Under the pieces are notes generated by a model. The model made no database searches. It worked only from the letters and a program-made list of their open reading frames with translations, and was not told where the DNA came from. Below are positions 33,415 to 51,110 of a DNA stretch of 64,000 nt, in pieces. Source of the stretch: Thermoplasmatota archaeon (GTDB lineage: Archaea > Thermoplasmatota > Thermoplasmata > UBA10834); NCBI GenBank assembly GCA_018814355.1, contig JAHIZT010000053.1, forward strand, positions 798 through 64,797. Direction: 5' to 3'. Positions within the stretch are counted from its first letter, which is position 1. Each line of letters begins with the position of its first letter. Position numbers and translations under genes: made by a program.

Positions 33415-35838
33415 TTGATGCCAAACCCCGACGAGCCGGCCGAGAACTCCATTGCATGCCCCATATGCGGCTACCAGTCGCCAAAGGGTGCGACCAGGTG
33501 TGAACACTGCTACACTAGCCTACAGGCCGAAGAGAAGACAACGGGTGCTGGAGAGACCGAACCGGATCGCGGCCAGAACGAAGAGGGCCTTGAGGAACTC
33601 AGACTCGTTCCTGGAGTCGGCGAGGCGAAGGCCGAGACTCTGTATGAGGCTGGATACCGCTCGCTGAAGGACCTGCAGGAAGCTAGCGTCGACGAATTAT
33701 CAGCAGTGAAGGGCATCAGCGAGAAGCAGGCCGCCAAGATAATCAGGGGTGCAAACAGTCTTACGAACCCAAGCGGGGCCTCCCCGCTGGCAAACTGGCT
33801 TTCGGGAGAGGACGAGGGACTCTCCGAATGGCTTTCGGGGGAAGAGAGGGTCCAACCGGAGGCGACGGCAATGAAAGCCGACGCCCCACGGGATAATTCT
33901 CTGGCGAAATGGTTGGCTGGGGAAGAGGAGGATGTGAACGTCTGGCTTGAAGAGACCAGGGCACCTGAACCCGCTCCACAGACCATCGGACCTAACGAGG
34001 TCCTTGCAAGAGAAGCTGAATTGATCCAGCTGCGCGAGACCATGCGAGAGAAGCTTAGCCAGTTCGAATCAGGGGACTTCGACGCGCAGGCGACCATCGA
34101 AGAGCTCGCCAAGGCCAAGGGTGACCTCGAGATAGAGAGGGGCAAGGCTAGGCAGCTCGAAGAGGAACTCGAAAACGTCAAGCGTGGGAGCATTGCGGTC
34201 ATCAAGTTCATCAAGAACCAGCAGGGGTCTGAGATGGACCAGAGCACGCTCACTGACAAGCTGGCATCTGAGATGGCAAACCGGGAGAACCTCGAGCTCA
34301 AGATAATGCAGCTTGAAGAGGTCAATACGACCCTGAAGGAGGAAGTCGAGGCCGGGATTCAGGAGCTTCCTCCAGAGGCACAGGAGCTCAAGCGCAGGGA
34401 GACCGAGCTCGCGGAGATGAAGGCCCAGCTCGAAGCGATGAAGAAGCAGCTCCTGGCTAAGGAAGAGGCTCTGAGTCAGGGCATGCTGTCTGCACCCCCT
34501 GGGACTACGGTGATGATCGATGCAGGATCCGCGCAACGCGCAGAGGAGTCAGCCAGAAGGGAGCAGGAGCTGGCCGCGAGGATTCAGGAGATCGAGGGAA
34601 AGTTGGCCGAGGCGGATGTCCTGGTCAGACAGAAAGATGAGATGCTCAAGATCTCAGGCGGTTCTGCGAAGACCGTCGACAAGGAGGTCATGAGGAAGCT
34701 GGAAGACGCCCAGAGACTCGAGCGCACACTTGCGGTCAGGGATCAGGAGCTTCAGAGGGTAAGGGGGGATCTCAAGGTGAGCACGGAGGACCTCCAGAAA
34801 CTCAAGGAGCCGATGAAGTACAAGGAAGAGGAGATGCTCAGGCGTGAGGAGGACCTCATGTTCCGCGAGCGGCTGCTCCAGGAGGAGCTGAAGAAGGTCA
34901 CCCAGTCCAAGGCCGAGCTGACATCCCATGGCGAGATCGACCTTAAGAAACGCCTAGAAGTGCTCCAGGCAGAGGTCACGGCGAAGGAGGAGTCGATCAG
35001 GAACAAGGAGAAGTACCTGTCCGCCAAGGAGGAGGAGCTCAGGCTCAGGCAGCAGGGCGTGATATCCGACGAGATAGAAAAGCGCGAGCTGGACCGGATG
35101 CTCGAGGTCAAGCAGGAGAAGGTAAAGACGGGCACCGCCAGGCTCGACGACTTGCTGCTAGGTGGTATGCCGTTCGGTGCGAACGTGCTAGTCTACGGTC
35201 CTCCGTTCACTGGCAAGGAAGTGCTGCTCAACGTGTTCATCGCGGAGGGGCTCAAGAAGGGCATACCCGCGATCTGGATCCTGACAGAGAAGTCCCCAAA
35301 GGATGTTCGCGAGGAAATGACTTTCGTGGTCTCCGGATACGAAGAGTACGAGAAACTCGGGCTCGTGAGATATGTTGACGCGTATTCCAGGAGCATGGGA
35401 GATGACTCCCAGGACCCGTATGCAGAGTATGTTGAGTCTCCGACGGACTACGAATCAATCCAGAGAGCCGTGGAGACTGCCGCGAAACCGATGCGGGAGA
35501 AGCACCCGTATTATAGGGTCGGCTTCCGATCCATTTCCACGTTGATAGCGTACCTCGACCCTGGCACAGCGTTCAGGTTCCTGAGCCCTGTTGTAGGCAG
35601 GAGAAAGCGGGACAAGGCAGTTGCTATGTACACCATCGAAAAGGGCGTCCACGGTGAGCAGGAGATCCAGATGATAGGCTCACTGATGGATGGGATGATA
35701 GAGTTCAAGGTCGAGAACCTGAACACCTTCCTGGCGATCAGAGGCATCTGCGACGTTCAGTCGAGGTCTTTCATCAGATACTCCGCAACGAAGGTTGGCG
35801 TCACAATCGGTTCGTTCTCGCTGGACCACATCAGATAG
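33415..35838 (+). CDS. Multidomain protein: N-terminal zinc ribbon, (HhH)2, W-acidic repeats, ~400-aa coiled coil, C-terminal KaiC/RecA-like ATPase domain
   Basis: CPICGYQSPKGATRCEHC; HhH (LVPGVGEAKAETLYEAGY...VKGISEKQAAKII); three WL(S/A)GEE repeats; heptad-rich E/K/L region; C-terminal Walker A-like GPPFTGKE and KaiC-like fold. Confidence 0.6.
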   Translation: MMPNPDEPAENSIACPICGYQSPKGATRCEHCYTSLQAEEKTTGAGETEPDRGQNEEGLEELRLVPGVGEAKAETLYEAGYRSLKDLQEASVDELSAVKGISEKQAAKIIRGANSLTNPSGASPLANWLSGEDEGLSEWLSGEERVQPEATAMKADAPRDNSLAKWLAGEEEDVNVWLEETRAPEPAPQTIGPNEVLAREAELIQLRETMREKLSQFESGDFDAQATIEELAKAKGDLEIERGKARQLEEELENVKRGSIAVIKFIKNQQGSEMDQSTLTDKLASEMANRENLELKIMQLEEVNTTLKEEVEAGIQELPPEAQELKRRETELAEMKAQLEAMKKQLLAKEEALSQGMLSAPPGTTVMIDAGSAQRAEESARREQELAARIQEIEGKLAEADVLVRQKDEMLKISGGSAKTVDKEVMRKLEDAQRLERTLAVRDQELQRVRGDLKVSTEDLQKLKEPMKYKEEEMLRREEDLMFRERLLQEELKKVTQSKAELTSHGEIDLKKRLEVLQAEVTAKEESIRNKEKYLSAKEEELRLRQQGVISDEIEKRELDRMLEVKQEKVKTGTARLDDLLLGGMPFGANVLVYGPPFTGKEVLLNVFIAEGLKKGIPAIWILTEKSPKDVREEMTFVVSGYEEYEKLGLVRYVDAYSRSMGDDSQDPYAEYVESPTDYESIQRAVETAAKPMREKHPYYRVGFRSISTLIAYLDPGTAFRFLSPVVGRRKRDKAVAMYTIEKGVHGEQEIQMIGSLMDGMIEFKVENLNTFLAIRGICDVQSRSFIRYSATKVGVTIGSFSLDHIR

Positions 35839-36756: not shown

Positions 36757-37767
36757 ATGAACTTGTCCCCCCAGCACGCGAGCTATTGTGCAGACTCGAC
36801 CGGCAACCGGATCAAGAAATCACCGCGGTGGGACAACGGCGAGGGCGTGGCCTCCACAATCGGAACAATCATGTCGCTCCTCGTTTTCTTGACGGCCTTT
36901 GGGATGTTCACGAACCAGTTCGTGCCCGTATGGATGAGCGACAACGAGAGCAGCCACATGTCAACGGTCATCCAGCAGTTCACGACGCTCAAGTCGTCCG
37001 TGGACATCAGCATCTCTTACAACTCAAACAGCAGGATAGCACCTACGCCAGTGTTCGTGCCGATCACTTTGAGCTCGGCAGGCATCCCCGTGTTTGCCGC
37101 CCCCACCGCGGGGATACTGCGATACATTCCCGAAGCGATCAATCAGAGGCCTATGTTCAACATCACCTATAGTTACATTTCCCCAACTGGCACGCCGAAC
37201 ACCTTGAGCTCGAGCAACGATGGGCACTCAGGCGGCTCGCTAGACCTCTACTGTCCCAACAGATACTTTGTCGAGCAGCACTTGGTCTACGAATCGGGCG
37301 CAGTGATCCTCAACCAAAGCGATGGTGAATTCATCATTGCCGGGCCGCAGTTCTCAGTCAGGAACGTTGGGACTGCCAGCTCCCCGGAGATTGTGGTAAT
37401 GTTGACCCAGATCTCGCTCCAGGGCCTGAACAAGACCATCGGAGGCACTGGCTCCAAGGGAGTCACTGCGGACCTGCTATATGCGGACACGACGGCATAC
37501 GAGAACAGTGCAGGATCTCAGGTTACCATCACAATCGTCTCGAACCACGGCTATGCATGGTATGAGTACTTCCTGAGCAGGCTGGACGGCACGGCCGACA
37601 TGACAATAGGTAACGGGTTCACCCTGACGAAGGCACTTCTCCCATTCCCCCCATCCCCCAACAGAATGAACAACTACTACGTGGTCACCCTGACAATAGA
37701 CAATGTACATATTCTGGACTACACGCATGCCATCGTGAAGCTCTCGATAGGGGAGCTCGGAGTATAG
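36757..37767 (+). CDS. Putative archaeal pilin-like / archaellum-accessory-like protein with class-III-type N-terminal hydrophobic segment, N-glycosylation-sequon rich
   Basis: Charged leader (NRIKKSPRWDNG) then hydrophobic helix EGVASTIGTIMSLLVFLTAFGMF; beta-rich with many N-x-S/T sequons. Lies directly upstream of the FlaI-family ATPase. Confidence 0.35.
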   Translation: MNLSPQHASYCADSTGNRIKKSPRWDNGEGVASTIGTIMSLLVFLTAFGMFTNQFVPVWMSDNESSHMSTVIQQFTTLKSSVDISISYNSNSRIAPTPVFVPITLSSAGIPVFAAPTAGILRYIPEAINQRPMFNITYSYISPTGTPNTLSSSNDGHSGGSLDLYCPNRYFVEQHLVYESGAVILNQSDGEFIIAGPQFSVRNVGTASSPEIVVMLTQISLQGLNKTIGGTGSKGVTADLLYADTTAYENSAGSQVTITIVSNHGYAWYEYFLSRLDGTADMTIGNGFTLTKALLPFPPSPNRMNNYYVVTLTIDNVHILDYTHAIVKLSIGELGV

Positions 37768-37777
37768 GAGTGATCTC

Positions 37778-39538
37778 ATGGCTGAAGCTCAACCAAAGGT
37801 AAAACACGAAATCGATGTCAAGGCCCCGCCGATGCCACTTGGCGCCAGGATATATCAGGGCTGGGTGGGAGCTGTGAGCAAACTGAAGTCGTCCCCTATC
37901 GAGATCAGGGCTCCGAGAGGCGCGGCCGCACGGAAACGCGACTGGAGCCACGGTAGGGGTTCAGTGTACACCAAGATACCGCCGATCACCGACACCGCCA
38001 TTCAAGAGATCGGGTTCTACAGCGTGGTCGAGCCGTTCAGTTACACAAGAGCGACATACAACAGCACGATCAGCGAGTACATCCTGACCAACATAGAGCC
38101 CACCCTGACCGAGGACGAGGAGGAGCTCCTCAAACTCATCAAGGAGACCCTTGAGAAGACCCTCGAGTACGAATGGGACAAGCTGGCCGTGATGGACAAC
38201 AAGACATTCCTGGAGAGGAGCGTGGACAGTTTCATCAAGTCCAGAGGCATGAGCATCGAGCCGATCTCCAAGGACAAGATCACGTACTTCATCTCGAGGG
38301 ACTTTGTGGGCTACGGGAAGATCGACGCCCTGATGAACGACAAGAACATCGAGGACGTTTCGTGCGATGGCGTGGGAATCCCGCTGTTCGTGTTCCACAA
38401 CAAGTTCGAATCCATCAAGACGAACGTGTCGTTCGAAGACGAGGACGACCTCAACTCGTTCGTGATAAACCTTGGCCAGAGATGCGGCAAACAGCTGTCC
38501 GTCTCGAACCCGATACTGGACGGCACGACACCCGAAGGGCATAGAGTCCAAGCGACATACGCAAGGGAGGTCACGACCAGGGGCGCGTCGTTCACGATAA
38601 GACGGTTCAAGGAGAAGCCCTTCACTCCCGTCGAGCTAATCAAATACGGAACGGCGTCACCCGAGATCGTTGCGTACTTGTGGCTCAGCGTTGAGCACGG
38701 CGAATCCGCAATAATATGTGGTGGGACTGCCAGCGGCAAGACGGCGACACTGAACGCAATGGCCCTATTCATACCGCCAGGCGCCAAGGTCGTCACCATG
38801 GAGGATACGAGGGAGATCAATCTGCCGCATGAGAACTGGATCCCCGGTACGACAAGGTCCGGCGTTGGTGAGCGTGGCCCGGACGGCAAGGCCGCAGGAG
38901 AGATCGACATGTACGACCTCGTCAGGGCGGCGTTGAGGCAGAGGCCAAACTACATCATCGTCGGTGAGGTCAGAGGCAAGGAGACATACACGATGTTCCA
39001 GGCGATGGCGACCGGGCACACGACGTTCTCCACGATGCACGCTGACAGCGTTAAAGGAATGGTCAACAGGCTCGAGAACCCGCCCATCAACTGTCCCAGG
39101 ATACTTCTCACGGCCCTAAGGAACGTCATCATCCAGACCCATGCGAGAGTCGGGATGGGCATGGTCAGGCGGATCAAGCAGCTCATTGAGATCGTCGGTT
39201 TCGAGCCCGAGACGAACGAGCTCATAAGCAACACCGTCTACGAGTGGGACCAGGCGTCTGACAAGTTCATATTCAAAGGCCACAGCTTCCTTTTCGACAA
39301 GATCATGGAGATGAAGAACCTGACCCACGAGGAGCTCACGCAGGAGTTCGAGCGCAGGGTCGACATCGTGAAGTACATGGTCGCGAAGGATATTGCGGAC
39401 CACCGCGAAATATGGGGTCTGATCAGGGAGTATTACAAAGACCCCAAGGCCACCGCGGAGATGGTCCGCAAGGAGCTCCACGGGGCGGCTCCCAGACCCG
39501 CGCAGGTAGTAGTTTCCGGAGGTGAGGCAACTGCCTGA
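37778..39538 (+). CDS. FlaI/ArlI-family type IV filament assembly ATPase (paralog 1)
   Basis: Strong similarity to the archaeal FlaI core: Walker A GGTASGKTATLNA, Walker B/Asp box IIVGEVRGKE, His box TFSTMHAD. Confidence 0.8.
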   Translation: MAEAQPKVKHEIDVKAPPMPLGARIYQGWVGAVSKLKSSPIEIRAPRGAAARKRDWSHGRGSVYTKIPPITDTAIQEIGFYSVVEPFSYTRATYNSTISEYILTNIEPTLTEDEEELLKLIKETLEKTLEYEWDKLAVMDNKTFLERSVDSFIKSRGMSIEPISKDKITYFISRDFVGYGKIDALMNDKNIEDVSCDGVGIPLFVFHNKFESIKTNVSFEDEDDLNSFVINLGQRCGKQLSVSNPILDGTTPEGHRVQATYAREVTTRGASFTIRRFKEKPFTPVELIKYGTASPEIVAYLWLSVEHGESAIICGGTASGKTATLNAMALFIPPGAKVVTMEDTREINLPHENWIPGTTRSGVGERGPDGKAAGEIDMYDLVRAALRQRPNYIIVGEVRGKETYTMFQAMATGHTTFSTMHADSVKGMVNRLENPPINCPRILLTALRNVIIQTHARVGMGMVRRIKQLIEIVGFEPETNELISNTVYEWDQASDKFIFKGHSFLFDKIMEMKNLTHEELTQEFERRVDIVKYMVAKDIADHREIWGLIREYYKDPKATAEMVRKELHGAAPRPAQVVVSGGEATA

Positions 39539-40559
39539 AATATCCGACGTCTTCAAGCAGGTCGAGGTCAAACCTTCTCAGTACCTCAAGACCTCGATCG
39601 CGCAGACGGGCGAGAGGCTCGGCCCGCATGCTGTAAGACTCACGAAGGGCGCTGTTCCCGAGTACATCAAACTCTCGCCGTTCCAAGACCTCGCGTGGAG
39701 GACGATGGGCAAGTACGCCAAGACGAGGACAGCCCAGCTGCAGCAGCTGGATGACTCGCTCCTGAAGGCCCACATGAAGATCAGGCCAGAGGAGTACCTG
39801 GCATATGTGTTGATGGGCACGCTCGTCTCAGCTATCATAGGCGTGGCAATCGGCATAGGCGTCGGTGTTGTCCTGTTCGGCCTCCTGGGCGTGAGCGTGG
39901 TTCTCAGAGTCGTGGTGGCGGCCCTCGCGATTGGCCTGCTACCGATAATGGCATACATGATGTTGCTCGGCTCCCCGCATTCGAAGGCGAAGAGACGCGG
40001 AAGAGACATAGAGAAGAGGATCGCCGCCGCCATGAGCTTCATCTCGGCGATGGCGTCGGCCGATGTCAACATCGATGTCATATTCAAGGAGCTGTCAAGG
40101 CAGAAGGTCTACGGAGAGATAAGCCAGGAGGCCGCGTGGATCACCAGGGACACCGAGCTGCTGGGGTCTGATATCCTTACGGCCATCAAGAAGGCTGCAA
40201 AGAGGTCCCCGTCCTCGAAGTTCCAGGACTTCCTTCAAGGCGTCATCACCACATCGACATCCGGCGGACAGCTGAAGCCGTATTTCCTGCTCAAGGCCGA
40301 GGAGTACCAGAAAGAGAACAAGCTTGCCCTCAAGTCCCAGATGGAGACCCTGGGTATGCTCGCGGAGTCGTTCGTGACCGTCGTCGTCGCGTTCCCCCTG
40401 TTCCTTGTGCTCATCCTGGCGATCATGGCCATCGTCGGCGGGGGAGACCCCCAATTCATGGTCATGATGCTCTATCTGATAGTGCTCGGGATGATCCCTG
40501 TGTCACAGTTCGGTTTCATATTCGTCATCTGGAACATGTCAAAGGAGAGTGCGATGTAG
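39522..40559 (+). CDS. TadC/FlaJ-like membrane protein, N-terminal T2SSF domain (ends at in-frame TAG)
   Basis: TM helices flank a cytoplasmic T2SSF-like domain. Ends at TAG 40557-40559, followed immediately in the same frame by ATG 40560. Confidence 0.6.
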   Translation: MRQLPEISDVFKQVEVKPSQYLKTSIAQTGERLGPHAVRLTKGAVPEYIKLSPFQDLAWRTMGKYAKTRTAQLQQLDDSLLKAHMKIRPEEYLAYVLMGTLVSAIIGVAIGIGVGVVLFGLLGVSVVLRVVVAALAIGLLPIMAYMMLLGSPHSKAKRRGRDIEKRIAAAMSFISAMASADVNIDVIFKELSRQKVYGEISQEAAWITRDTELLGSDILTAIKKAAKRSPSSKFQDFLQGVITTSTSGGQLKPYFLLKAEEYQKENKLALKSQMETLGMLAESFVTVVVAFPLFLVLILAIMAIVGGGDPQFMVMMLYLIVLGMIPVSQFGFIFVIWNMSKESAM

Positions 40560-41492
40560 ATGCCGCCTCAGAAAGCCATGAATGAGCAGGAGAGGGAGAA
40601 AGCCCTCAAACGGATACTGGCAACTGACAAGGTGGACCTGACGAAGACCCTCCTGGGCGCTTCGATGGGTGTGGCCGCGCTGTTCATATTCATGGCAATC
40701 GTGGACAACATGGGAAGCCTGAAACTCCCACTAGACCCGATCGACTGGATCATCTTCGCAATCGCGGCGATCATCGGCCCGTACGGATTCTACGCGACCA
40801 CCAGGGAGAAGCGCGTTAGGGAGATCGAGACGAGGCTGCCTGACTTCCTGAGAGATGTCGCAGAGGCCGGCAGATTCGGCATGACTCTCGCGAACGCAAT
40901 AGTCGTCGCATCGTCCGGAAGGTATGGTCGGCTGACACCAGAGATCACGAGGATGGCCGCGCAGATCGAGTGGGGCGTGCCCGCCTCCGAGGCCATCAGG
41001 CTTTTCTCCGAGAGGGTCAAGACGCCTCTGGTCACAAGAATGGCGTCCATCATCATGAAGGCCAACGACGCAGGCGGCAATGTCGCCGATGTGCTGAGCA
41101 TGGTCTCGCACGACGCAAAGGACACCATCCTGACACAGGAGGAGAGAGGCGTTACGATGCAGACCTACGTCCTGGTCGTATACATCGCCTTCTTCGTGTT
41201 CATCGCCACCATCCTGATCCTGCAGGGCCAGTTCCTTCCGAAGATGGAACAGGCAGGCAAGCAGGTCAGCGAGCAGGCGGAGAAGCAGGGCCTGGGGGAG
41301 ATACCGGGTGTGAGCATTCAGGTTGACATCATCCCTACGGTCTCGTTCATCTTCCTGCTGTCTGTGGTCGTACACGCGATAGGTGACGGTCTGCTGGCGG
41401 GAGTCATAGCGAATGGGAGCATACCGATAGGCATGAGGCACAGCTTCATAATGCTGATCGCAGGGTTCGTATCATTGAGGGTCATCGGGTGA
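40560..41492 (+). CDS. TadC/FlaJ-like membrane protein, C-terminal T2SSF domain
   Basis: Second T2SSF-like domain with TM helices. Same reading frame as 39522-40559. Confidence 0.6.
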   Translation: MPPQKAMNEQEREKALKRILATDKVDLTKTLLGASMGVAALFIFMAIVDNMGSLKLPLDPIDWIIFAIAAIIGPYGFYATTREKRVREIETRLPDFLRDVAEAGRFGMTLANAIVVASSGRYGRLTPEITRMAAQIEWGVPASEAIRLFSERVKTPLVTRMASIIMKANDAGGNVADVLSMVSHDAKDTILTQEERGVTMQTYVLVVYIAFFVFIATILILQGQFLPKMEQAGKQVSEQAEKQGLGEIPGVSIQVDIIPTVSFIFLLSVVVHAIGDGLLAGVIANGSIPIGMRHSFIMLIAGFVSLRVIG

Positions 41493-41498
41493 GTAAAG

Positions 41499-43208
41499 AT
41501 GACAGAGACTGAACAGCCCAAGATGCAAGTTGAACCTGGAACCGAGGAACCGAATGAGAAGAAGAAGGGCCCAGGCTTCATGTCGGCGTACTACAACTTC
41601 CTGCTGAAGATCAAACCGAAGCCCTTGATGATCGCCCTCCCCAAGAGCGAGACCGGCACGGACATGTCGAGGATAACGGACATCCCCAAGATTTCCGAGC
41701 CGAACGTGGACGAGGTGGAGCTACTTCCGATCAAACAGAACTACGTCTACGTGAGGATCAAGTATGACAACAAGTCCAACGAGTACCTTTACGAGGTCAT
41801 CGAGCCGAAGCTGTCCGAGGACGAACGGGATGTCCTGACGCTCCTGAAGGAGACCCTGGTCGCTTCTGTCGAGAAGATGACCGAGACGGTAGCCGAAGAG
41901 AAAGAGAAGTACCTCAGGAGGATAGTCGAGAGGCTCATGGTTCAGCTCGGGGTAACGCTCCACCCGATCTCGAAGGAGAGGGTGACTTACTACATCATCA
42001 GGGACTTCATCGGATACGGTGTGATCAACGCGATGATGTCAGACCCGAACGTGGAGGACTGCTCATGCGACGGCGTCGATGTCCCATTCTACATATACCA
42101 CAGGAAGTACGGCTCGATCAGGTCAAACCTGAGATTCGTCAAGGAGGTGGAGCTGGACGGATATGTCGTCTGGCTGGCCCAGAAGTGCGGCAAGCACATC
42201 TCTGTGGCGAGCCCGCTGCTCGATGCAACGATCCCGGACGGTTCCAGACTGCAGGCGACCCTCGGTAGGCACGTGACAAAGAGAGGATCCTCGTTCACCA
42301 TCAGGCGGTTCAAGGAGAACCCGTTCACGCCCCTCGACCTGCTCAAGTTCAAGACAATGAGCACGGAGATGATGGCGTATCTATGGATCTCGATCGAGCA
42401 CGGCCAGTCGATGCTCGTCTGCGGAGGCACTGCGAGCGGCAAGACTACTACCCTCAACGCGATCCTGCTTTTCATCCCGCCTCAGATGAAGATCGTCTCC
42501 ATCGAAGACACCAGGGAGCTCAACCTGCCCCACGAGAACTGGGTCCCGGGCCTCACGAGGGAAGGGTTCGGAGGCAAGAGCCACATCACTGGCAGGGCGT
42601 CAGGCGAGATAGACATGTTCGATCTCCTCACATCAGCCATGAGACAGAGGCCACAGTACCTGATGGTCGGTGAGGTCAGAGGCAAGGAGGCATACGTCGT
42701 CTTCCAGGCCATGGCCACCGGCAAGACCTGCTACTCAACCTTCCACGCGGAGGACGTCCAGGCGATGGTGCACAGGATGGAGAACGACCCGATCAACCTG
42801 CCAAGGGCGCTTATCACGGCACTGAACATCGTCCTACTCCAGGCACAGGTCAAGGTCGGCACCAAGATGACCAGGCGTGTGAAATCTCTTACTGAGATCG
42901 TTGGCATCGACCCTGAGACGAACGAGCTCATCACCAACTCGGTCTACACATGGAATCCCGCGGATGACAGCTTCAACTACAGCGGCCACAGCTACGTTTA
43001 CGAGAAGGTCAGGATGGCCAGGAACTGGGCCCCGAGAGAGATGGAGAGGGAGATCAAGAGGCGTGTGGACATCCTGGAGTACATGAAGAAGATCGGGATG
43101 GACAACCACAGGAAGGTCGCAACGATCATCTCTGCATATTACAAGGACCCCGAGAAGGTCATGAAGGAAGTGAGGGCAAAGCTGGCTGAGGGCGCGGAGA
43201 AGCTCTGA
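41499..43208 (+). CDS. FlaI/ArlI-family type IV filament assembly ATPase (paralog 2)
   Basis: Walker A GGTASGKTTTLNA, MVGEVRGKE, STFHAE. Roughly half identical to paralog 1 over the core. Confidence 0.8.
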   Translation: MTETEQPKMQVEPGTEEPNEKKKGPGFMSAYYNFLLKIKPKPLMIALPKSETGTDMSRITDIPKISEPNVDEVELLPIKQNYVYVRIKYDNKSNEYLYEVIEPKLSEDERDVLTLLKETLVASVEKMTETVAEEKEKYLRRIVERLMVQLGVTLHPISKERVTYYIIRDFIGYGVINAMMSDPNVEDCSCDGVDVPFYIYHRKYGSIRSNLRFVKEVELDGYVVWLAQKCGKHISVASPLLDATIPDGSRLQATLGRHVTKRGSSFTIRRFKENPFTPLDLLKFKTMSTEMMAYLWISIEHGQSMLVCGGTASGKTTTLNAILLFIPPQMKIVSIEDTRELNLPHENWVPGLTREGFGGKSHITGRASGEIDMFDLLTSAMRQRPQYLMVGEVRGKEAYVVFQAMATGKTCYSTFHAEDVQAMVHRMENDPINLPRALITALNIVLLQAQVKVGTKMTRRVKSLTEIVGIDPETNELITNSVYTWNPADDSFNYSGHSYVYEKVRMARNWAPREMEREIKRRVDILEYMKKIGMDNHRKVATIISAYYKDPEKVMKEVRAKLAEGAEKL

Positions 43209-43944: not shown

Positions 43945-46900
43945 CTACTGGTTCTCGTCCTCTTCGCCTGACCCGGTCTCTTTCTCCTCGCCGCTCACGG
44001 GCGTCTTGATGATCTTCTTGGGCACGACCTTTCGGTCTATCGGCCTTCTGATGACCATCCTGGGCGCCATTGCCGGAGGCACCTGCTGAGCCTGTGTGCC
44101 GCCTCTCTCCTCCGTCAGAGGCGCCCCCTCGACCGCCCTCTCCTCGGGCGGCGCCGCGGGTGGCAGGCCCTTCTTTGGCGGTGCTACTGCTGGCTTGACC
44201 GCCCCGAACACGGTGCCGCACTTGTGGCACACGTTCGCTTCCTTCGGGTTCAGCGTGCCACAGACCGGGCACGGGACCGGGCCCTCCTTCTTCTTCTCCT
44301 CTTCCCTGGCGAGCCAGTCGTCGAAGCTGATGTACCCAGGCTGCGCCATCCACCAGGCCTCGAATGCCTTCTCGCTGAACTTCTTGCCTAGCTCGGGCTT
44401 CGCGAGCTCGCGGTACTTGGAGACGATCTCATCGTACTCCTTCCTCATGCGCTCGAGGTAGTCGGCCTCCACTTCGGTCTCGCCCGCGAACTTCACGCCA
44501 CAGTTCGGGCACTCGGTCGATTCAGCAGGTATCCACGCGCCGCACTCGGAGCACTTCATCGTGCCAGCTTCGAACTCGACACCACACTTCGGGCATCTCT
44601 TGCTCGCGGCCGGTATGAACGCGCCGCACTCGCCGCACTCCACGAGTTTACCAAGACCATATATATAAGTGTACACGGTGAAGCCAGCAACAACGCCAAC
44701 AACAGCGACGATGATGAGTACCCAGACCCACCACGGGAACAATCCGCCCGAGACTTGTGCGCTCACATGGATCGTGGTCGCGCTGTCATAATCGGAGTCG
44801 AGGATCACGGCCCTGACGGTGTATGTACCAGTGTCAAGAGATGGCGGTATTCTCAGGAGGACGATTATGCTTCCGTCCAGGCTCGTCGTCTCAACGGTGC
44901 TGTTCGAGTCCGGCACAAGCTCGCCGGAAGAGTCGACCAGCCAGAACACAACTCCTGGCAGACTCTTGACAGGGTCACTCATGCCGGCGTAAGTCACCGT
45001 CGCACTGATGACCATCATATCGCCAGCATTGTATTCGGCGAAGTCACTAATGATCACCACATCGACTAGCAGCTGCGTTATGTTGAAGGGTGCTACAGCG
45101 AAGTTGTTGGCCTCGTTCGGCTCTGCTATCGATCCCGGCCCATCAAGCCAGACCCAGATCTCGTAAGCGCCTGGAGTTGTCAGGTTGATCGGCCACAGGA
45201 CCGTGACCAGGAGCGTGTTCTCCGTCGCGTTCGAGGAGATGTTGTAGTTCGCTTTCGTGTGGATGGTGTGGTTATAGCCTGCGCCCCTGACGCCGATCTC
45301 CACCTGGAAGGCATCTACCCGCCTTCCTCCAAGGTCCCTGACAAGGGCTCGGACGTTGACCTGGTGACCGAATACATCGCTCGTTACGTTGGTCGTGCCG
45401 CGCTGCACATAGATGTCCGAAGACACGATGGACAGGTCCGGCCTGACATCGGTCACGGCAATGATGATAGTCTGCTCATTGTTCATGTAGTTCGTTTCCA
45501 CTTGGTCATGGCCCTCGTTGACCCTCATCACTAGGGTCACATCAGTCCGAACCGTCACTGTCGGAGACGTGAAGGTCTGTGTCACCTCGAGAGATCCGCT
45601 AGCGGCCGAGAGAGACACGCCAGAGACATCCCAGGGTATCGGAGCTATCGACCCGCCGGCCCATGTGACATAGAGAACCAGGTTTGGATTGACGAACGGT
45701 GCTGCGTTCAGGTTCTGCAACTGCGCTCTTACCGTTACGGTCTCTCCTCCTGGCACAGCGATAGCTGGGGTCGTCTCGATTGAGGACAGCAGCAGATCTG
45801 GGTGGTCGTACACCATTATCTGGATGCTATCATGGTTGTTTAGAGGATCCATTTCCTCGTAACCGCCCATTAGAGTAGCCACAACCTCAATCGTGTGTTG
45901 CACTCCAGGATTCGCTGGATTCCATGGAACAGATGCCAATATGGATCCACCGGGCGTAATTCCCGTGATGTTGTCCGATCCGACGTACGCACCATCATCG
46001 AAGAAGTCGACCTGAACCAAGGTGCTCACGTTGTTTCCGTCATTGTAGATTCTCGCCTGTAGGTCGCACGCCGTCCCAACGATCACGAAGTCGATGGACG
46101 CCTTGATGGATGGATTGAGGGGTGATCCCGCACTGACCCTGATGTCCGGAAGGCTCTTGATGGTCAAGATGCCAGATGCGATCGCGGGCGTAGCATCATT
46201 TATCTCGCGGATCACGTTGAGCCTGTCTGCCACAACTAGGAATGTGTGACTGTTCGGGTCGACCTGCCCCGATGCGGTCCAGCTGGCACTCGCAACTCCG
46301 GACAAGCCTGCCATGATCACCGGTATGCTCGTCGTGGCGAACAGTTCGTTGTTATCTACATCTGGAATGCCATTCTTGTTGAAGTCGTCGAAGAACTCGA
46401 CAGCAACTTTGTAGGCGCTCGCAACACCAGTGTTGTTTATCCTTCCATATATCCAAACAGTCTCCCCCATCCTCAGGTGCGTGATGGAGACGCCTGTTGC
46501 GTTTAAAGCCCAAACAGGTGTGTAACCCTGGTTCACGCTGAGGTCGCATAGAGCGGCTGGAATCGTCATTGTGGCATAGGTTGCGTTCCTGCCGAGCGGC
46601 TTCTCATAGGGCTTGACGCTCAGGGAGATTTCCGAATCTCCCGAAGAATTGTCAGCATAGTATGGCTGTCCCGCAACTGCAGGATATGTGTACGTAGCAT
46701 TGACCCAGTAGTTCCCCACGAAGGTGGAACCGATGGAAGTCAGTCTCGTGCCAAGCGAATTGACCTTGGCAACTCCGAGTGATTCTGGCGCGGCGCTGCT
46801 CATCGCCCATCCGGCTGGGACCTGGCTGACATATGATCTTGTGGATACGTTCACGCCTGGCAGAGGCATTCCTGCCCCATCGAGGACAGTCACATGGATC

Positions 46901-49206
46901 CATCTGTAGATCAGTGCTACAGCGTCGTCAGTAACCTCGATTGCGGGTACACTCGTGTTCGTGAACCCTGCCTCAACACTACCGGAGAGTTCCGGTATCT
47001 GGCTAAGGTCAGAATCCTTGATGGAGATCTTCTTGGTCCATGAATCCCAGGCCGTCGTGATCTTGCCATCCATCACCACATTGGAGAACAATATGGTCGC
47101 GTTCTCTTCGATGACAATGTTCACGCCTTCCATAACGGAGTCAACGACCTCTAGTATCCCGTCTCCCCTGACAACAATGTTGATCGGATACTGGCTTGTG
47201 ACTCTTGATTTCTGGAACAGCAGTTTCGCAGGGGAGGCGGCGGTTCCGTCGACATAGATCGTCTTCGTGTATGAGCCAGGCGGTACCAGCTGGAATACCG
47301 AGTTCGTGAAACTCAGTGTGCCTCCAGCGGCGACAATGACATCTCCTGCATGGTAGTATGTCATGTTCTTGATGTCAAGAGATGGAGGGACGACCAACCA
47401 TCTGGAGGGATCAGGGCTGGGCGCAGAGAGACCTATTATCGAAACAGTGACATCGAAGCTCTGATCAGCGTGGGTCATGGCAGGGTAAGCGGGGAAGGAG
47501 AATGCCTCCGTAGATTTGAATGATCCATTTACTCCTGTGATGTCGTAGGAACCTACAAACCTCGAGTCCATTGATCCACTGCCTGTGATGATGTCGGTGA
47601 GATAGGGTATTGTGGCCTTTCCGTCACTCTTCGTCATCGAATAGGTCAAAGCCGTCTCACCCATATAGGCAAGAATCTCGGAAGGGGGCGTCGTTGACAC
47701 ACTCCTCGGAGCGTAGTATATTGCCTGCAGACCCTCTAACTCGGTCGCGCCAGTGAAGTTGGCTAAGACATTGGAGTTGGATGTGGGGACGCCGTATTCA
47801 TCACCGATTGTTGTATTGAGCCATCTGTAGATGAAGGCGTCAGCTCCAACAGTGAACATTATCCAGATACGATCGAATTCGACGAAGCCTGCTCCAGGCC
47901 CATTCACGAATCTCATGTTCATGTTTCTGACATCGCCAACAGTCGCTATCGTCGACAACGGGAGATTGTAAAGTCTCTCAGTGCCTGGTGGATCGGTGTT
48001 GACAGGTACAATCGACGTATCAGAATACGCACTACCTTGCCTTGCCCACTGAACATGCGCCGTTCCGCTGTAAGCTGGGGCGACGGCATATGTCGCCACA
48101 AGCGTGGCTGAGCTTACTGGAAGGGCATCAGAAAGACCGCTCACGTCCCATGTGTCGATTTCGAGGGTTTGTGTCGGCAAGACCTGAATAGTCCCTCCAT
48201 CCACAACCGCGAGGTTCGTCAAGGATCCCGAAGTACTATCAGCGAGCCCTCTCGTTAGGGGGACTGCTGGCGATGCACTAGCTCCAGATGCCATGATGGC
48301 TGGGGCTCTGTCGGCTAGGGCTCCCGTGTATGTCTGGAAACTAGCTCCGTAGAAGTATGCATGAGACATGTCGTTGATTACTATCGCATTATGCACATGC
48401 CAATCCGCCGCAACTCGAGTTGGTCCGAAATCGACGCTGATATAGCTGTTGACGGCCAGAAGCGTCGACTCACCGTTCAGGGTCAAATTGCTCGCGGACA
48501 CGAGGTCAGTAGCATACTCAGGAAGGTCGAATATGGACGAATCATAGAGCTCCAGGGTCGAGTCGTTCAGGGTGATTGCAGGACCGTCATCGGCCGAGTC
48601 GAAGGTTATCGCGCCGCTCGATCCGATCACATACTGTGCGACCAGCGTCGGCGGGAGCGCCATGATCTCAGTGTCCGTCAGGCTGACGTTCGCGTCCGTT
48701 CTCAGGATGATGTTCCCTGGGAACATGAGCAACGAGTTGTTGGTCGCAATGAGCTTACCGCCATCCTGGACAGTGATGTTCAGGAACGGCCATGGGTTGA
48801 TCTGGTCCAGGTAGGCAGTGATGGTACCATGGTCCAGGACGAGCTTGCCGCCCGCGAAGACAGTGATACTGTGCTTCAGGTTAGGATTGTTGTTGCTGAT
48901 GATGCTCATGGTCGCGTCCCTGATGATCAGCTCTCCGCCGACTCGAACTTCGACATTGCCGTCGATCGGCTGTTCGATGTTCTCTATGGTATACGTTCCG
49001 TTCTGAACGATCAGGTCGCCCGCGGCGGCTCTCGTGGGCGTCATATCGGCCATGAACAGAAGGCCCGCGAAGGCGGAAATCACAAGACACACGACGGCCA
49101 AAGCACTCAACGTTCTATTGGCAACTAGCTTGTCAGCTTTGCCTTTCATAAAGTTCACCCACCCAGGATGCTGGGTACTGCGGGAAGAAGTAAGCAGGTC
49201 AGCCAT
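43945..49206 (-). CDS. Giant (1753 aa) cell-surface protein: N-terminal signal anchor, beta-helix-like and CARDB-like repeat ectodomain, C-terminal TM helix and cytoplasmic tail with three zinc ribbons
   Basis: N-terminal hydrophobic segment; hundreds of N-x-S/T sequons; CARDB-like motifs (EPNEANNF, DPLNNHDS); TM LFPWWVWVLIIVAVVGVVAGFTVYTYIYG; tail CGECGAF...CPKCG, CSECG...CPNCG, CPVCG...CHKCG; Lys/Pro-rich end. Confidence 0.6.
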   Translation of the reverse strand: MADLLTSSRSTQHPGWVNFMKGKADKLVANRTLSALAVVCLVISAFAGLLFMADMTPTRAAAGDLIVQNGTYTIENIEQPIDGNVEVRVGGELIIRDATMSIISNNNPNLKHSITVFAGGKLVLDHGTITAYLDQINPWPFLNITVQDGGKLIATNNSLLMFPGNIILRTDANVSLTDTEIMALPPTLVAQYVIGSSGAITFDSADDGPAITLNDSTLELYDSSIFDLPEYATDLVSASNLTLNGESTLLAVNSYISVDFGPTRVAADWHVHNAIVINDMSHAYFYGASFQTYTGALADRAPAIMASGASASPAVPLTRGLADSTSGSLTNLAVVDGGTIQVLPTQTLEIDTWDVSGLSDALPVSSATLVATYAVAPAYSGTAHVQWARQGSAYSDTSIVPVNTDPPGTERLYNLPLSTIATVGDVRNMNMRFVNGPGAGFVEFDRIWIMFTVGADAFIYRWLNTTIGDEYGVPTSNSNVLANFTGATELEGLQAIYYAPRSVSTTPPSEILAYMGETALTYSMTKSDGKATIPYLTDIITGSGSMDSRFVGSYDITGVNGSFKSTEAFSFPAYPAMTHADQSFDVTVSIIGLSAPSPDPSRWLVVPPSLDIKNMTYYHAGDVIVAAGGTLSFTNSVFQLVPPGSYTKTIYVDGTAASPAKLLFQKSRVTSQYPINIVVRGDGILEVVDSVMEGVNIVIEENATILFSNVVMDGKITTAWDSWTKKISIKDSDLSQIPELSGSVEAGFTNTSVPAIEVTDDAVALIYRWIHVTVLDGAGMPLPGVNVSTRSYVSQVPAGWAMSSAAPESLGVAKVNSLGTRLTSIGSTFVGNYWVNATYTYPAVAGQPYYADNSSGDSEISLSVKPYEKPLGRNATYATMTIPAALCDLSVNQGYTPVWALNATGVSITHLRMGETVWIYGRINNTGVASAYKVAVEFFDDFNKNGIPDVDNNELFATTSIPVIMAGLSGVASASWTASGQVDPNSHTFLVVADRLNVIREINDATPAIASGILTIKSLPDIRVSAGSPLNPSIKASIDFVIVGTACDLQARIYNDGNNVSTLVQVDFFDDGAYVGSDNITGITPGGSILASVPWNPANPGVQHTIEVVATLMGGYEEMDPLNNHDSIQIMVYDHPDLLLSSIETTPAIAVPGGETVTVRAQLQNLNAAPFVNPNLVLYVTWAGGSIAPIPWDVSGVSLSAASGSLEVTQTFTSPTVTVRTDVTLVMRVNEGHDQVETNYMNNEQTIIIAVTDVRPDLSIVSSDIYVQRGTTNVTSDVFGHQVNVRALVRDLGGRRVDAFQVEIGVRGAGYNHTIHTKANYNISSNATENTLLVTVLWPINLTTPGAYEIWVWLDGPGSIAEPNEANNFAVAPFNITQLLVDVVIISDFAEYNAGDMMVISATVTYAGMSDPVKSLPGVVFWLVDSSGELVPDSNSTVETTSLDGSIIVLLRIPPSLDTGTYTVRAVILDSDYDSATTIHVSAQVSGGLFPWWVWVLIIVAVVGVVAGFTVYTYIYGLGKLVECGECGAFIPAASKRCPKCGVEFEAGTMKCSECGAWIPAESTECPNCGVKFAGETEVEADYLERMRKEYDEIVSKYRELAKPELGKKFSEKAFEAWWMAQPGYISFDDWLAREEEKKKEGPVPCPVCGTLNPKEANVCHKCGTVFGAVKPAVAPPKKGLPPAAPPEERAVEGAPLTEERGGTQAQQVPPAMAPRMVIRRPIDRKVVPKKIIKTPVSGEEKETGSGEEDENQ

Positions 49207-49262
49207 ATAAAAATGTATTTACCGCATTCTCATGTCGAGGAAGGGTTTTCCGGAGTGTCTGG

Positions 49263-50279
49263 CTAGACCACTTTCTTCTTCACGATTTTCTTGACGAAAA
49301 TCTGAGGTTTCCTGAGCAAGCCCGACTTCTCGCCTTCATCTGCTGACTCTATCTTCTCTTCCAACTTCGCGAGCGCGTCCTTGATGTTCGCGCCACAGGC
49401 GTAGCACATGAGCGCATCCGTGCTCACCATAGTCTTGCAGTTGGGGCACGCGATCTCGTCCTCGGATGCTTCCTCCTCGGGGACTGTCTCGGGCTGGGCG
49501 ACCTCCTCCTCCCTGATCTTCTGACCACAGGCGTAGCACATGACCGCGTCCTTGCTTATGACCGTCCTGCAGTTCGGGCACTGCATCTCGTCCTCGCTCA
49601 GGTTGGCAGGCGCCTCGGACTCTTCCGTCCTGACCGGCGGGACGAGGAAACCTTTCGCGAGCATATCCTTCTGCTTGTCCAGGAGCTTACGAGCGTCCTC
49701 TGACAGTTTCTCTCGGTCTCTCCTGATGGTCTCTTCCTCCTCAGCGAGAGACCTCTCTCTCGCAACGAGAGCGTCGCGTCGGGACGTTATCTGCTCGAGC
49801 AACCTCTGAGCCTCCTCCTCCGACTTCTTGAGGAGCTCTTCCCGGTCAAGGAGGCTCTTGCGCCTGTCGGAAAGCTCTGACTGATGCTTGCTGATGTCCG
49901 CCAGTTGGTCCTGGGCGTCCTTCTCCCTTGCCTCAGCCGCGTTCATGGTGGCCTTGGCGGTCGCTTCCAACTTGGACATCTCAGCGCTCTTCCCCTCGAC
50001 CTGTGATGCCTTCTCCTGAACGGCGGTCTCGCGCTTCTTCAGTTCTTCTGACTTCTGGTCGAGCGAGGATTCCTTCTGTCTCATGGAATCCTCCTTCTCT
50101 CTCAGACGCTGCTCGAGGGTGTCGAGCTCGGACTTCTGCTTCTGGACATCCTCAGTCTGGGCCTTCAGCTCGAGGTCCCTCTTTCTGACCTCTGCCTCCT
50201 GCGTCTTGAGCCTCTTGACGGCATCTTCTATGATGTCCGAGATAGTCGGGTCCTTCTGGTCCTTCTGGTCCTCTGGCAT
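49263..50279 (-). CDS. Coiled-coil protein with two C-terminal zinc ribbons
   Basis: About 230 aa E/K/L-rich heptad region, then CPNCRT...CYACG and CPNCKT...CYACG. Confidence 0.5.
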   Translation of the reverse strand: MPEDQKDQKDPTISDIIEDAVKRLKTQEAEVRKRDLELKAQTEDVQKQKSELDTLEQRLREKEDSMRQKESSLDQKSEELKKRETAVQEKASQVEGKSAEMSKLEATAKATMNAAEAREKDAQDQLADISKHQSELSDRRKSLLDREELLKKSEEEAQRLLEQITSRRDALVARERSLAEEEETIRRDREKLSEDARKLLDKQKDMLAKGFLVPPVRTEESEAPANLSEDEMQCPNCRTVISKDAVMCYACGQKIREEEVAQPETVPEEEASEDEIACPNCKTMVSTDALMCYACGANIKDALAKLEEKIESADEGEKSGLLRKPQIFVKKIVKKKVV

Positions 50280-50393: not shown

Positions 50394-51110
50394 TCAGGGC
50401 GCGCTGAGCAATGGCCCGAGCACCTGAATGCCGTTCCTGCCCACCTCGATCGCGTGTCTCTCCATTGAGTGCTCCGCAGCCCGCATCTTCTCAACCTGGA
50501 GGAACCTCATGAGCTTTCCGCGCTGCCTGTCGAGTCCAAGGTGCATTATGCCGTCCGCCAGGAAACCCTCGTTGCCGAGCAGCTGCGACTCGCCAGTGAG
50601 CGAGCGCTCCATGATGATGAACGCAGTCAGGTTGTTGTCCCTGAGCATCTTGAAGAAATAGAACATCTTCTTCCTCATGTCCTGGACGTTCTCCATGAGG
50701 GAGTACAGAGCACCCAATGAGTCGAGCACGAATATCGAGAACTTGTCTCCGTGGGTCTTCCTGAACCTCTGGATCATCTTCTCGATGAACAGGACGTAGT
50801 CGGTCTGCGCATCCTGGCCTATGACCTCGTCGATCTGGTCGATCTCCCTAAGGTCCGTCAGGTCGGAGATCTGCATCTTCATGGAAAGCTTCGCCCCGAT
50901 GCTCTCCATGTTCTTCAGGTGGCTGTCGGCCGTCTCCTCGAGTGTGGCGTACAGCCCGAATTCGTTCTTGTCCCTCAGGTACTGGGACATGAGGGTGTAG
51001 CAGAAGGTTGTCTTCATCGATCCCGGAGGACCTGTGACGAGTATCACCTTGGGCCTGTCCACGTCGTTCTTGAAGACCTTTTCCAAGCCTGGTATAGAAT
51101 CCTTGAACAC
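50394..51110 (-). CDS. KaiC/RecA-superfamily ATPase, ArlH(FlaH)-like single-domain
   Basis: About 235 aa KaiC-like fold with an atypical Walker A (VTGPPGSMKTTF, Met in place of the second Gly) and Walker B FVLD. Confidence 0.6.
   Translation of the reverse strand: MFKDSIPGLEKVFKNDVDRPKVILVTGPPGSMKTTFCYTLMSQYLRDKNEFGLYATLEETADSHLKNMESIGAKLSMKMQISDLTDLREIDQIDEVIGQDAQTDYVLFIEKMIQRFRKTHGDKFSIFVLDSLGALYSLMENVQDMRKKMFYFFKMLRDNNLTAFIIMERSLTGESQLLGNEGFLADGIMHLGLDRQRGKLMRFLQVEKMRAAEHSMERHAIEVGRNGIQVLGPLLSAP

Follow-up and report, generated by a model that had tools for sequence, protein, structure and literature searches.

The window analysed here is a stretch of 64,000 nucleotides from a Thermoplasmatota archaeon (assembly GCA_018814355.1, contig JAHIZT010000053.1, positions 798 to 64,797), and its reverse strand encodes at 43945..49206 a giant type-I surface glycoprotein ending in a predicted cytoplasmic tail of zinc ribbons. 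This tail module is far more strongly constrained than the exterior of the protein. The giant gene is linked in the genome to a type IV filament locus resembling that of the CdiP machinery of Cuniculiplasma divulgatum, and usually also to genes for a KaiC-like ATPase and for a coiled-coil protein with a double zinc ribbon (DZR). Taking these findings together, we tentatively read the giant protein as an adhesin or anchor that connects the surface layer with a cytoplasmic assembly located at the pilus machine.

A conserved tail module on a giant protein

Sixty-two homologs of the giant protein were recovered, nearly all of 1,530-1,750 residues and of the same architecture, and every named source is a metagenome-assembled genome (MAG) of Thermoplasmata or Thermoplasmatota. 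Column conservation in this family reaches 0.81-0.95 at residues 1501-1650 (numbering of homolog P0001) as compared with 0.34-0.74 in the exterior. In pairwise comparisons with the window protein, a 153-residue core of the tail is 82-98% identical where the CARDB region of the ectodomain is 29-49% and the N-terminal head 48-60% identical, and such a tail (82-98%) on an exterior that is 30-60% identical is unusual. The six CxxC motifs, a helical domain and, at the C-terminus, PRMVIRRPIDRKVVPKKIIKTP hardly vary in the alignment. The tail, to which the preliminary description of this DNA had attached particular importance, is the most conserved part of the giant protein and points to conserved intracellular partners.

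The tail comprises 237 residues, slightly fewer than the approximately 245 first estimated, and contains the features described before, namely three CxxC...CxxC ribbons, the string DDWLAREEE and a Lys/Pro-rich composition (10% Lys and 10% Pro). Its twelve cysteines form six CxxC motifs at residues 1524, 1538, 1552, 1566, 1646 and 1660. The first four belong to a double zinc ribbon (residues 1522-1572; 44491..44643, reverse strand, as are all parts of the giant gene given below) that matches the Pfam model DZR (PF12773) with 35.2 bits at a cut-off of 27.3. It is followed by a three-helix domain (residues 1580-1640; 44287..44469) with invariant or near-invariant aromatic residues (Y67, Y75, Y82, F99, W102, W103, F112 and W115 in tail numbering), the third helix of which includes DDWLAREEE (residues 1629-1637; 44296..44322). 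A third zinc ribbon (residues 1644-1667; 44206..44277) starts 73-82 residues past the end of the double ribbon throughout the family and is recognised by the Pfam models Zn_Ribbon_1 (PF13240, 32.7 bits, cut-off 25) and Zn_ribbon_3 (PF13248, 29.5 bits, cut-off 27). All 12 ribbon cysteines are invariant across the family, distant tails included, and zinc binding is predicted; the ribbons resemble other ribbons only generically. Beyond the third ribbon, a Pro/Ala-rich linker that varies in the alignment (residues 1668-1714; 44065..44205) is predicted to be disordered, with an AlphaFold2 predicted local distance difference test score (pLDDT) below 50, and leads to the conserved basic motif PRMVIRRPIDRKVVPKKIIKTP (residues 1715-1736; 43999..44064) and to an acidic C-terminal end (residues 1737-1753; 43948..43998). 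Acidic or Gln-rich C-terminal ends are found family-wide.

The same tail was looked for on other proteins with a profile built from ten tails and searched against 1.84 billion representative proteins, which gave 2060 matches at E<=1e-3, 360 at <=1e-10 and 210 at <=1e-30. In the best 150 matches, contig-end fragments aside, the tail forms the extreme C-terminus of proteins of 1,000-4,499 residues with a hydrophobic helix 9-21 residues upstream, and one to several repeats of the type (V/I)(V/I)xKK(V/I)(V/I)KK lie close to the end. The search for homologous tails in other archaeal giants, proposed beforehand as a check, thus leads to hundreds of proteins of 1,000-4,500 residues, whose named sources are all Thermoplasmata. 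Two more tail-profile searches returned mostly contig-end fragments and generic double-ribbon proteins outside the family, with no cultured organism among the matches. One weak match is labelled 'uncharacterized membrane protein YvbJ' by the Joint Genome Institute (JGI), and many proteins of the Poseidoniales (marine group II; P0327-P0377) combine a double zinc ribbon with an EF-hand and are related by the ribbon only. Homologs of the giant protein are annotated only as 'hypothetical', 'CARDB domain-containing', 'zinc ribbon domain-containing' or, spuriously, 'ribosomal protein L40E', and in literature searches on zinc ribbons with CARDB domains in archaea and on Methanomassiliicoccales surface proteins, neither the family nor its link to CdiP-type loci was found described.

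Scanning one genome for each prokaryotic species yielded 95 loci, 80 of which were kept, with one locus per assembly. All but one of the kept loci (79/80) come from Thermoplasmata or archaeal bins, environmental Methanomassiliicoccales included. The odd locus lies on a contig of 2,154 bp (DATEYD010000143.1) binned as 'Candidatus Paceibacterota bacterium'; its tail is 72% identical to that of the window protein, and the contig is most likely a mis-binned archaeal one. In a distant member of the Thermoplasmata, the gene for a protein of 1,285 residues with a C-terminal Prok-RING_1 zinc finger lies some 1.5 kb upstream of the giant gene, with one other gene intervening (locus L081, 697-4554), a hint that large proteins with zinc-binding tails may be a more general phenomenon.

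Genomic coupling to a two-ATPase filament locus

The giant gene is met at its 3' end by a convergent type IV filament locus (36757..43208, forward strand), beyond which lies the gene of a KaiC-fusion protein (33415-35838). The locus is identified by two Pfam T2SSE and two T2SSF matches and by NCBIfam models. It begins with a pilin-like protein of 336 residues with a class III signal (36757-37767; site EG|VASTIG), followed by a first filament ATPase (37778-39538), an N-terminal half of the platform protein (39522-40559; positions 5-246 of 555 in an ArlJ model), a C-terminal half (40560-41492; positions 193-450 of 465 and 263-536 of 555 in ArlJ models) and a second filament ATPase (41499-43208). 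The two ATPases score 114.5 and 112 bits with T2SSE and 420 and 432 bits with FlaI-like NCBIfam models. Two secretion ATPases and a platform divided between N- and C-half genes are the features that were reported as unique to the CdiP machinery of Cuniculiplasma divulgatum (PMC12448462). The window locus shares both hallmarks with CdiP, belongs to the same archaeal class and is likened to it by layout; neither a giant zinc-ribbon-tailed protein nor KaiC-like genes are named in the CdiP machinery (PMC12448462). Two ATPases have also been described in one Aciduliprofundum locus, again with no mention of a giant protein (Makarova et al., 2016). The present loci extend the two-ATPase locus of CdiP type from one cultured acidophile to Thermoplasmata of soil, sediment and groundwater and to environmental Methanomassiliicoccales. 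Cultured Methanomassiliicoccus and Methanomethylophilus are reported to have no secretion ATPases.

On its other side the giant gene is preceded by two genes of the same strand. The first of this three-gene cluster encodes a stand-alone KaiC-like ATPase of 238 residues (50394..51110, reverse strand; Pfam KaiC, 121.6 bits), and the second a coiled-coil protein of 338 residues with a double zinc ribbon (49263..50279, reverse strand; Pfam DZR and Zn_ribbon_3), which ends in LLRKPQIFVKKIVKKKVV. The latter has no transmembrane helix, and its Pfam and NCBIfam matches are limited to zinc-ribbon and generic coiled-coil models. The genes are separated by 56-125 bp in the window, and by 42 and 18 bp in a related locus (L002), where the arrangement is operon-like.

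For the neighbourhood counts 83 loci were fetched, 70 of which have at least 2.5 kb of flanking sequence, and genes within 3.5 kb were taken as adjacent. Filament-machine genes lie within this distance of the giant gene in 68 of the 70 loci, while upstream of it a KaiC-like gene is present in 41 of 46 loci and a detectable coiled-coil/DZR gene in 34 of 46. Inherited synteny, which also takes in gyrBA, thiC and yip1 nearby, accounts for much of this pattern. The filament link is nevertheless kept in distant loci (L074-L082 and L085) that lack gyrase, KaiC and coiled-coil genes in the vicinity and in which the pilin-like gene has moved, and in one of these (L076) the filament genes lie on the opposite side of the giant gene. 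The earlier proposal that the giant protein belongs with the neighbouring filament locus is supported by this adjacency, the lost-synteny and inverted cases included. Conversely, one lineage (L084) has KaiC, coiled-coil and DZR genes beside the giant gene and no filament genes in 10 kb on either side, which indicates that the upstream genes are linked to the giant gene separately from the filament locus. An apparent KaiC gene beside the giant gene in two distant loci (L076 and L078) proved to be the helix-hairpin-helix (HhH) part of an S3Ae-HhH ribosomal protein.

Start site, topology and exterior

The open reading frame (ORF) at 43945..49206 exists on the reverse strand as a surface protein of 1753 residues, as first described, and its assignment is supported by the list of ORFs and by the 62 full-length homologs of the same architecture. 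The true start is probably the ATG at 49149, giving a product of 1734 residues, because a database protein of 100% identity, taken from a MAG named 'Candidatus Thermoplasmatota archaeon', begins at M20 and has 1734 residues, because the first in-frame ATG (49206) is overlapped by the TATA-like TTTTTATAT (region 49149-49215) and because a Shine-Dalgarno-like GGTGA directly precedes the ATG at 49149; the start of the longer frame is likely unused. Residue numbers are given here for the 1753-residue frame.

Hydropathy reveals only two strongly hydrophobic segments, at residues 33-55 and 1489-1516. The first is the core of a signal peptide (residues 20-62; 49021..49149), which on the basis of hydropathy and of the N-termini of the family consists of a basic n-region, a hydrophobic core of 21 residues and a cleavage-like site AxA|GDL that follows the core and is kept across the family. 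The second is the single transmembrane helix (44659..44742; Kyte-Doolittle peak of 2.6 over 19 residues), which had been foreseen at 44690-44770, about 30 nucleotides away, and a hydrophobic segment lies 9-21 residues before the ribbons in nearly all family members that bear the double ribbon. The type-I-like topology proposed earlier thus stands, with a signal peptide, one C-terminal helix and a composition that fits an internal tail: the tail is Cys-rich, Lys/Glu-rich and free of N-glycosylation sequons, in contrast to an ectodomain that is Cys-poor, Lys/Glu-poor and Ser/Thr/Asn-rich. Because of this difference in composition and of the N-in orientation of the signal peptide, the zinc ribbons are placed in the cytoplasm, as judged from hydropathy and composition. 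A class III (prepilin) signal was considered as well and rejected in favour of a Sec-type signal with AxA|GDL: the motif [KRDE][GA][ALIFQMVED][ILMVTAS]x3 at the start of the N-terminal hydrophobic segment is found in only 11 of 114 family members, and the window protein reads NR-T|LSAL at this position, which does not fit it.

The ectodomain measures 1432 residues, close to the 1450 estimated before, and contains two cysteines. Its 27 sequons compare with 15.2 +/- 3.4 in shuffled sequences, and the tail has 0; an enrichment is therefore present, whereas the word 'saturated' used in the preliminary description overstates what is only an approximately 1.8-fold excess. The predicted combination of beta-helix and CARDB repeats is upheld by a confident, all-beta AlphaFold2 model of residues 57-900, built with eleven family sequences (pLDDT 81, predicted template modelling score 0.68), and by a whole-protein CARDB score (PF07705) of 78 bits over three stretches at a cut-off of 22.7. 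In the model the N-terminal part of the ectodomain has the fold of a right-handed parallel, pectate-lyase-like beta-helix, a fold also employed by adhesins and by proteins that bind polysaccharides, and this head spans residues 63-300 (48307..49020). No sequence family of beta-helices in Pfam is matched (Cthe_2159 reaches 18.3 bits at a cut-off of 25.8 and G8 13.9 bits), a profile of the ectodomain gave no match at E<0.1 among the sequences of solved structures in the PDB, and a Foldseek search of the PDB gave none at E<=1e-3.

The head is followed by a variable cassette (residues 304-459; 47830..48297), the least conserved stretch of the protein in the column-conservation profile, for which per-region identities separate three states among relatives: type A, type B and deleted. 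The versions look unrelated, with 44-87% identity for type A and 27-34% for type B. One homolog (P0005) carries the type B cassette despite 72% identity on both flanks, and the cassette is wholly missing in relatives of about 1,570-1,600 residues; this mosaic pattern suggests recombinational swapping or diversifying selection. The middle ectodomain (residues 460-879; 46570..47829) consists of a beta-sandwich, a second beta-helix-like run and another beta-sandwich according to the secondary structure of the AlphaFold2 model, and has no Pfam match above threshold. Then come four tandem Ig-like CARDB domains (residues 880-1375; 45082..46569; Pfam), presumed to form a stalk, which score 30, 36.3, 15 and 29.4 bits when scanned piecewise, and a membrane-proximal beta domain (residues 1376-1488; 44743..45081) with a weak match to a prealbumin-like SpaA model (17 bits, below threshold).

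With S-layer glycoproteins the giant protein shares secretion, sequon enrichment (27 versus 15) and a C-terminal transmembrane anchor. It has no PGF-CTERM or archaeosortase-type end, its helix being followed by the 237-residue tail, and no Pfam or NCBIfam model of an S-layer family matches it; a weak Foldseek match to SlaA/SlaB has an E value of 0.02.

Motifs shared with neighbouring proteins

The string DDWLAREEE had been regarded as an echo of repeats in the KaiC-fusion protein (33415..35838, forward strand), in which Pfam and sequence motifs delineate a zinc ribbon, an HhH domain, WL[SA]GE repeats, a long coiled coil and a KaiC-like ATPase domain, and whose gene flanks the filament locus in most loci. 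Its repeats read WLSGE, WLSGE and WLAGE at residues 128, 139 and 166 (33796-33810, 33829-33843 and 33910-33924), accompanied by a degenerate VWLEE. They are arranged in tandem with an invariant Gly in an acidic Gly/Ser/Pro-rich linker, and WL[AST]G[ED][ED] is kept across Thermoplasmata, in one to three copies, in at least 20 of 48 orthologs, many of which are cut by the ends of their loci. The tandem WL[SA]GE(E/D) repeats of the fusion protein look like a true short linear motif. The echo is real at the sequence level, as strings of the type WLAKEE are conserved in giant tails and W-acidic forms are absent from the other families of the neighbourhood; it is not supported as a link between the two proteins. 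AlphaFold prediction of the tail, proposed at the outset as a check, places the Trp of DDWLAREEE in a confidently predicted helix of the three-helix domain beside conserved aromatic residues, with the linker below a pLDDT of 50. In distant tails the Trp is invariant and the acidic residues vary (DWLSRQQAVN, DWRAKIEAES), and the string lacks the Gly that is invariant in the fusion protein. Since the tail Trp sits in a folded helix, the acidic residues around it vary and the fusion copies stand in tandem in a linker, the two motifs are probably not equivalent docking motifs; mimicry is possible.

A basic motif near the C-terminus appears, at the sequence level, to be a better-supported feature shared by the tail and the coiled-coil/DZR protein encoded at 49263-50279. 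The pattern [KR][KR][IV][IVM][KR][KRT], which was defined after the sequences had been seen, occurs within the last 70 residues in 71 of 85 tails and in 34 of 36 coiled-coil/DZR proteins and is absent from approximately 505 other proteins of the neighbourhood (about 230,000 residues), so that it marks these two families alone among about 600 neighbourhood proteins. The coiled-coil/DZR proteins end in KKPQIFVKKIVKKK in the lineage of the window and in K(R/K)SVSIRKIIKRK in Methanomassiliicoccales orthologs, and the tails of the giant proteins encoded at the same loci have VVPKKIIK and LRRIVRRP, respectively, a parallel change of flavour. In the window the motif lies at 49266-49319 in the coiled-coil/DZR gene and at 43999-44064 in the giant gene.

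Comparison with known systems

Several known systems resemble parts of this arrangement. Tapirins are bacterial beta-helix adhesins encoded beside a type IV pilus locus; they match over only 156-166 residues of chains of 355-408 residues, as compared with 1,734-1,753 residues in the archaeal protein, and no sequence similarity was detected between them and the CARDB stalk, transmembrane helix or zinc-ribbon tail. The likeness to methanogen adhesin-like proteins and to autotransporter beta-helix adhesins (Hap, TibA, pertactin, Ag43) is one of fold only. YvbJ-like membrane proteins with DZR or Zn_ribbon domains likewise combine cytoplasmic CxxC..CxxC ribbons, one transmembrane helix and an extracellular domain. 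They are usually small type-II proteins with the ribbon at the N-terminus, whereas the giant protein is of type I and carries a composite conserved C-terminal module of double ribbon, three-helix domain, third ribbon and basic motif.

The archaellum shares the overall plan, in that a type IV filament motor is combined with a KaiC-like ATPase, with a cytoplasmic coiled-coil protein and with an element that reaches the surface layer. There, ArlF/G reach the S-layer, ArlX or ArlCDE form the cytoplasmic scaffold and the KaiC-like ArlH binds ArlI (PMC12448462). No homology accompanies this likeness, and in the giant protein the surface and the cytoplasmic elements are one polypeptide. None of these systems, be it tapirins, methanogen or autotransporter adhesins, zinc-ribbon membrane proteins or the archaellum scaffold, pairs a giant type-I ectodomain with such a tail module. 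KaiC-like ATPases and zinc-ribbon proteins as such recur at archaeal type IV pilus loci (Makarova et al., 2016, PMC4858521).

A possible role at the pilus machine and its alternatives

Thermoplasmata are devoid of an S-layer, and in S-layer-less Thermoplasmatales an exterior protein layer of about 20 nm and of unidentified composition has been observed, which raised the question of how filament machines are anchored in such cells (Gaines et al., 2025, PMC12448462). Against this background the giant family is a testable candidate, being class-wide, large, glycosylation-prone and physically able to join outside and inside. In the tentatively favoured reading the giant protein would be a fixed transmembrane anchor that doubles as an adhesin, its exterior forming part of, or projecting through, a disordered glycoprotein coat that replaces the S-layer. 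Both the tail and the coiled-coil/ribbon protein would use the ribbons and the basic motif that they have in common to dock on one partner at the pilus motor, for which the KaiC-like ATPase, the filament ATPases and the membrane face are candidates. The machine would thereby gain a scaffold or stator, and surface contact would be coupled to pilus activity, in a role analogous, not homologous, to that of ArlF/G, ArlX/ArlCDE and ArlH in the archaellum. The shared basic motif singles out a first set of candidate partners, consisting of the coiled-coil/DZR protein, the KaiC-like ATPases and the two filament ATPases.

A more specific proposal, which we consider rather unlikely for now, is that the giant protein, the coiled-coil/zinc-ribbon protein and the KaiC-like ATPase constitute a new transmembrane stator or scaffold of the CdiP-type pilus that docks through a module of ribbon and KKI(V/I)KK. 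Were it true, one polypeptide would extend from the exterior coat to the motor ring, the anchoring of type IV filaments in archaea without an S-layer would be explained, and a component of the exterior protein layer would have been identified.

Several observations weigh against a role at the pilus machine as outlined here. The docking is read entirely from gene order and shared motifs, and a fold search with the tail gave no informative match. The basic motif may do no more than bind membrane or nucleic acid, and the parallel shift from Lys to Arg in the two proteins may in part be compositional drift. The neighbouring KaiC-like protein of 238 residues was tried as an ArlH/FlaH and rejected, with 26 bits at a cut-off of 194; generic archaeal KaiC models give 76-77 bits, also under their cut-offs. 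The L084 locus has no filament genes within 10 kb on each side and the shorter loci L061 and L080 show none either in the sequence covered, and gene order is highly conserved over most of the sampled lineage, so that informative distant loci are few.

An alternative that is unlikely as it stands, yet a serious contender, holds that the giant protein is the main coat protein or S-layer substitute of these archaea, its tail being tied to a coiled-coil membrane skeleton, and that the pilus locus belongs to the same envelope regulon and not to one machine with it. The protein is indeed large, is enriched in sequons and has an Ig-like stalk and a C-terminal anchor, there is one locus per assembly among the 80 kept, and the L084 lineage combines KaiC, coiled-coil and giant genes without filament genes. 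The glycoprotein layer of about 20 nm in S-layer-less Thermoplasmatales (PMC12448462) and the S-layer-like proteins at some PilA-type loci (Makarova et al., 2016) point in the same direction. The giant protein, however, bears no likeness to known S-layer families, its beta-helix head and swappable cassette are more adhesin-like than lattice-forming, and an adjacency to filament genes that survives rearrangement would be left unexplained.

The constraint on the tail, combined with a diversifying ectodomain, would also suit an integrin-like receptor or adhesin, in which the head binds a ligand, the state of the tail changes and the KaiC-like ATPases regulate extension or retraction of the pilus. 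This is unlikely, even if two KaiC-like ATPases are conserved nearby, a regulatory role of such ATPases in archaeal type IV pili has been proposed (PMC4858521) and the second ATPase of CdiP-type machines lacks an explained purpose. A single transmembrane helix with no recognisable signalling domain speaks against it, as do the lack of an identified kinase or phosphatase partner and the distant loci that retain the pilus link without KaiC nearby.

It is quite unlikely that the giant protein is an ordinary giant adhesin, whose ribbons and basic tail do housekeeping work in membrane retention, zinc-dependent oligomerisation or sorting and whose neighbourhood is inherited synteny. Adhesin-like proteins with beta-helix and CARDB domains are common in archaea, proteins that combine zinc ribbon, transmembrane helix and ectodomain are widespread (the weak YvbJ-labelled match among them), the ribbons are generic, and synteny of the whole region (gyrBA, thiC) is high in nearer lineages. 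Yet an identity of 82-98% in the 153-residue tail core, with 30-60% in the rest, needs specific conserved partners, the adjacency to the filament locus outlasts other synteny, and the motif common to the tail and the neighbouring coiled-coil protein shows high specificity.

Some type IV filament systems take up DNA, and the locus might accordingly be viewed as an apparatus of DNA uptake or exchange, made of a two-ATPase pilus, a giant receptor and the KaiC fusion with its zinc ribbon, HhH and RecA-like parts, with lysine-rich, histone-tail-like ends that bind DNA. The HhH domain of the fusion protein matches the N-terminus of RadA and ComEA-type HhH, and in some members the KK-rich basic ends recur, up to three or more times. 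This idea is nonetheless improbable, as no nuclease, ComEC-like channel or Ced-like component was seen in the window and neither HhH domains nor basic tails are specific to DNA uptake. Most improbable is a giant pilin-like subunit, cut by the prepilin peptidase as a substrate of the filament machine, for although the N-terminal hydrophobic segment is long (21 residues) and lies behind a basic n-region, a few distant members have RA|ASIL-type sites, and binding proteins with class III signals have been proposed to functionalise archaeal type IV filament machines (bioRxiv 10.64898/2026.04.22.720090), the FlaFind-type motif is confined to the 11 of 114 members mentioned above, the would-be -1 residue varies (T, S, A, V, M, L and others), the conserved AxA|GDL site lies past the hydrophobic core and a C-terminal transmembrane anchor is incompatible with extraction into a filament.

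Other features of the window

The convergent stops of the second filament ATPase and of the giant gene are separated by a gap of 736 bp (43209-43944), in which no convincing gene or Pfam match was found and short hydrophobic ORFs lie at 43395-43613 and 43568-43876 in two frames. In a related genome (L001) this position is taken by a nitroreductase gene, and the gap may represent a decayed or frameshifted gene for a small membrane protein.

Farther upstream of the giant gene, a protein of 556 residues (60830-62500) combines four CxxC..CxxC ribbons with long Pro-rich linkers and a C-terminal helical domain. It is preceded in the window by a DnaA-type AAA+ ATPase fused to DUF835 (58633-60813), which is syntenic in the two related genomes examined (L001 and L003). 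On the far side of the KaiC-fusion gene, the segment 30694-33141 encodes an HdrA-like flavoprotein with an MvhD/FlpD domain and several 4Fe-4S clusters, a fusion that fits the anaerobic metabolism expected of the Thermoplasmata lineage of the window.

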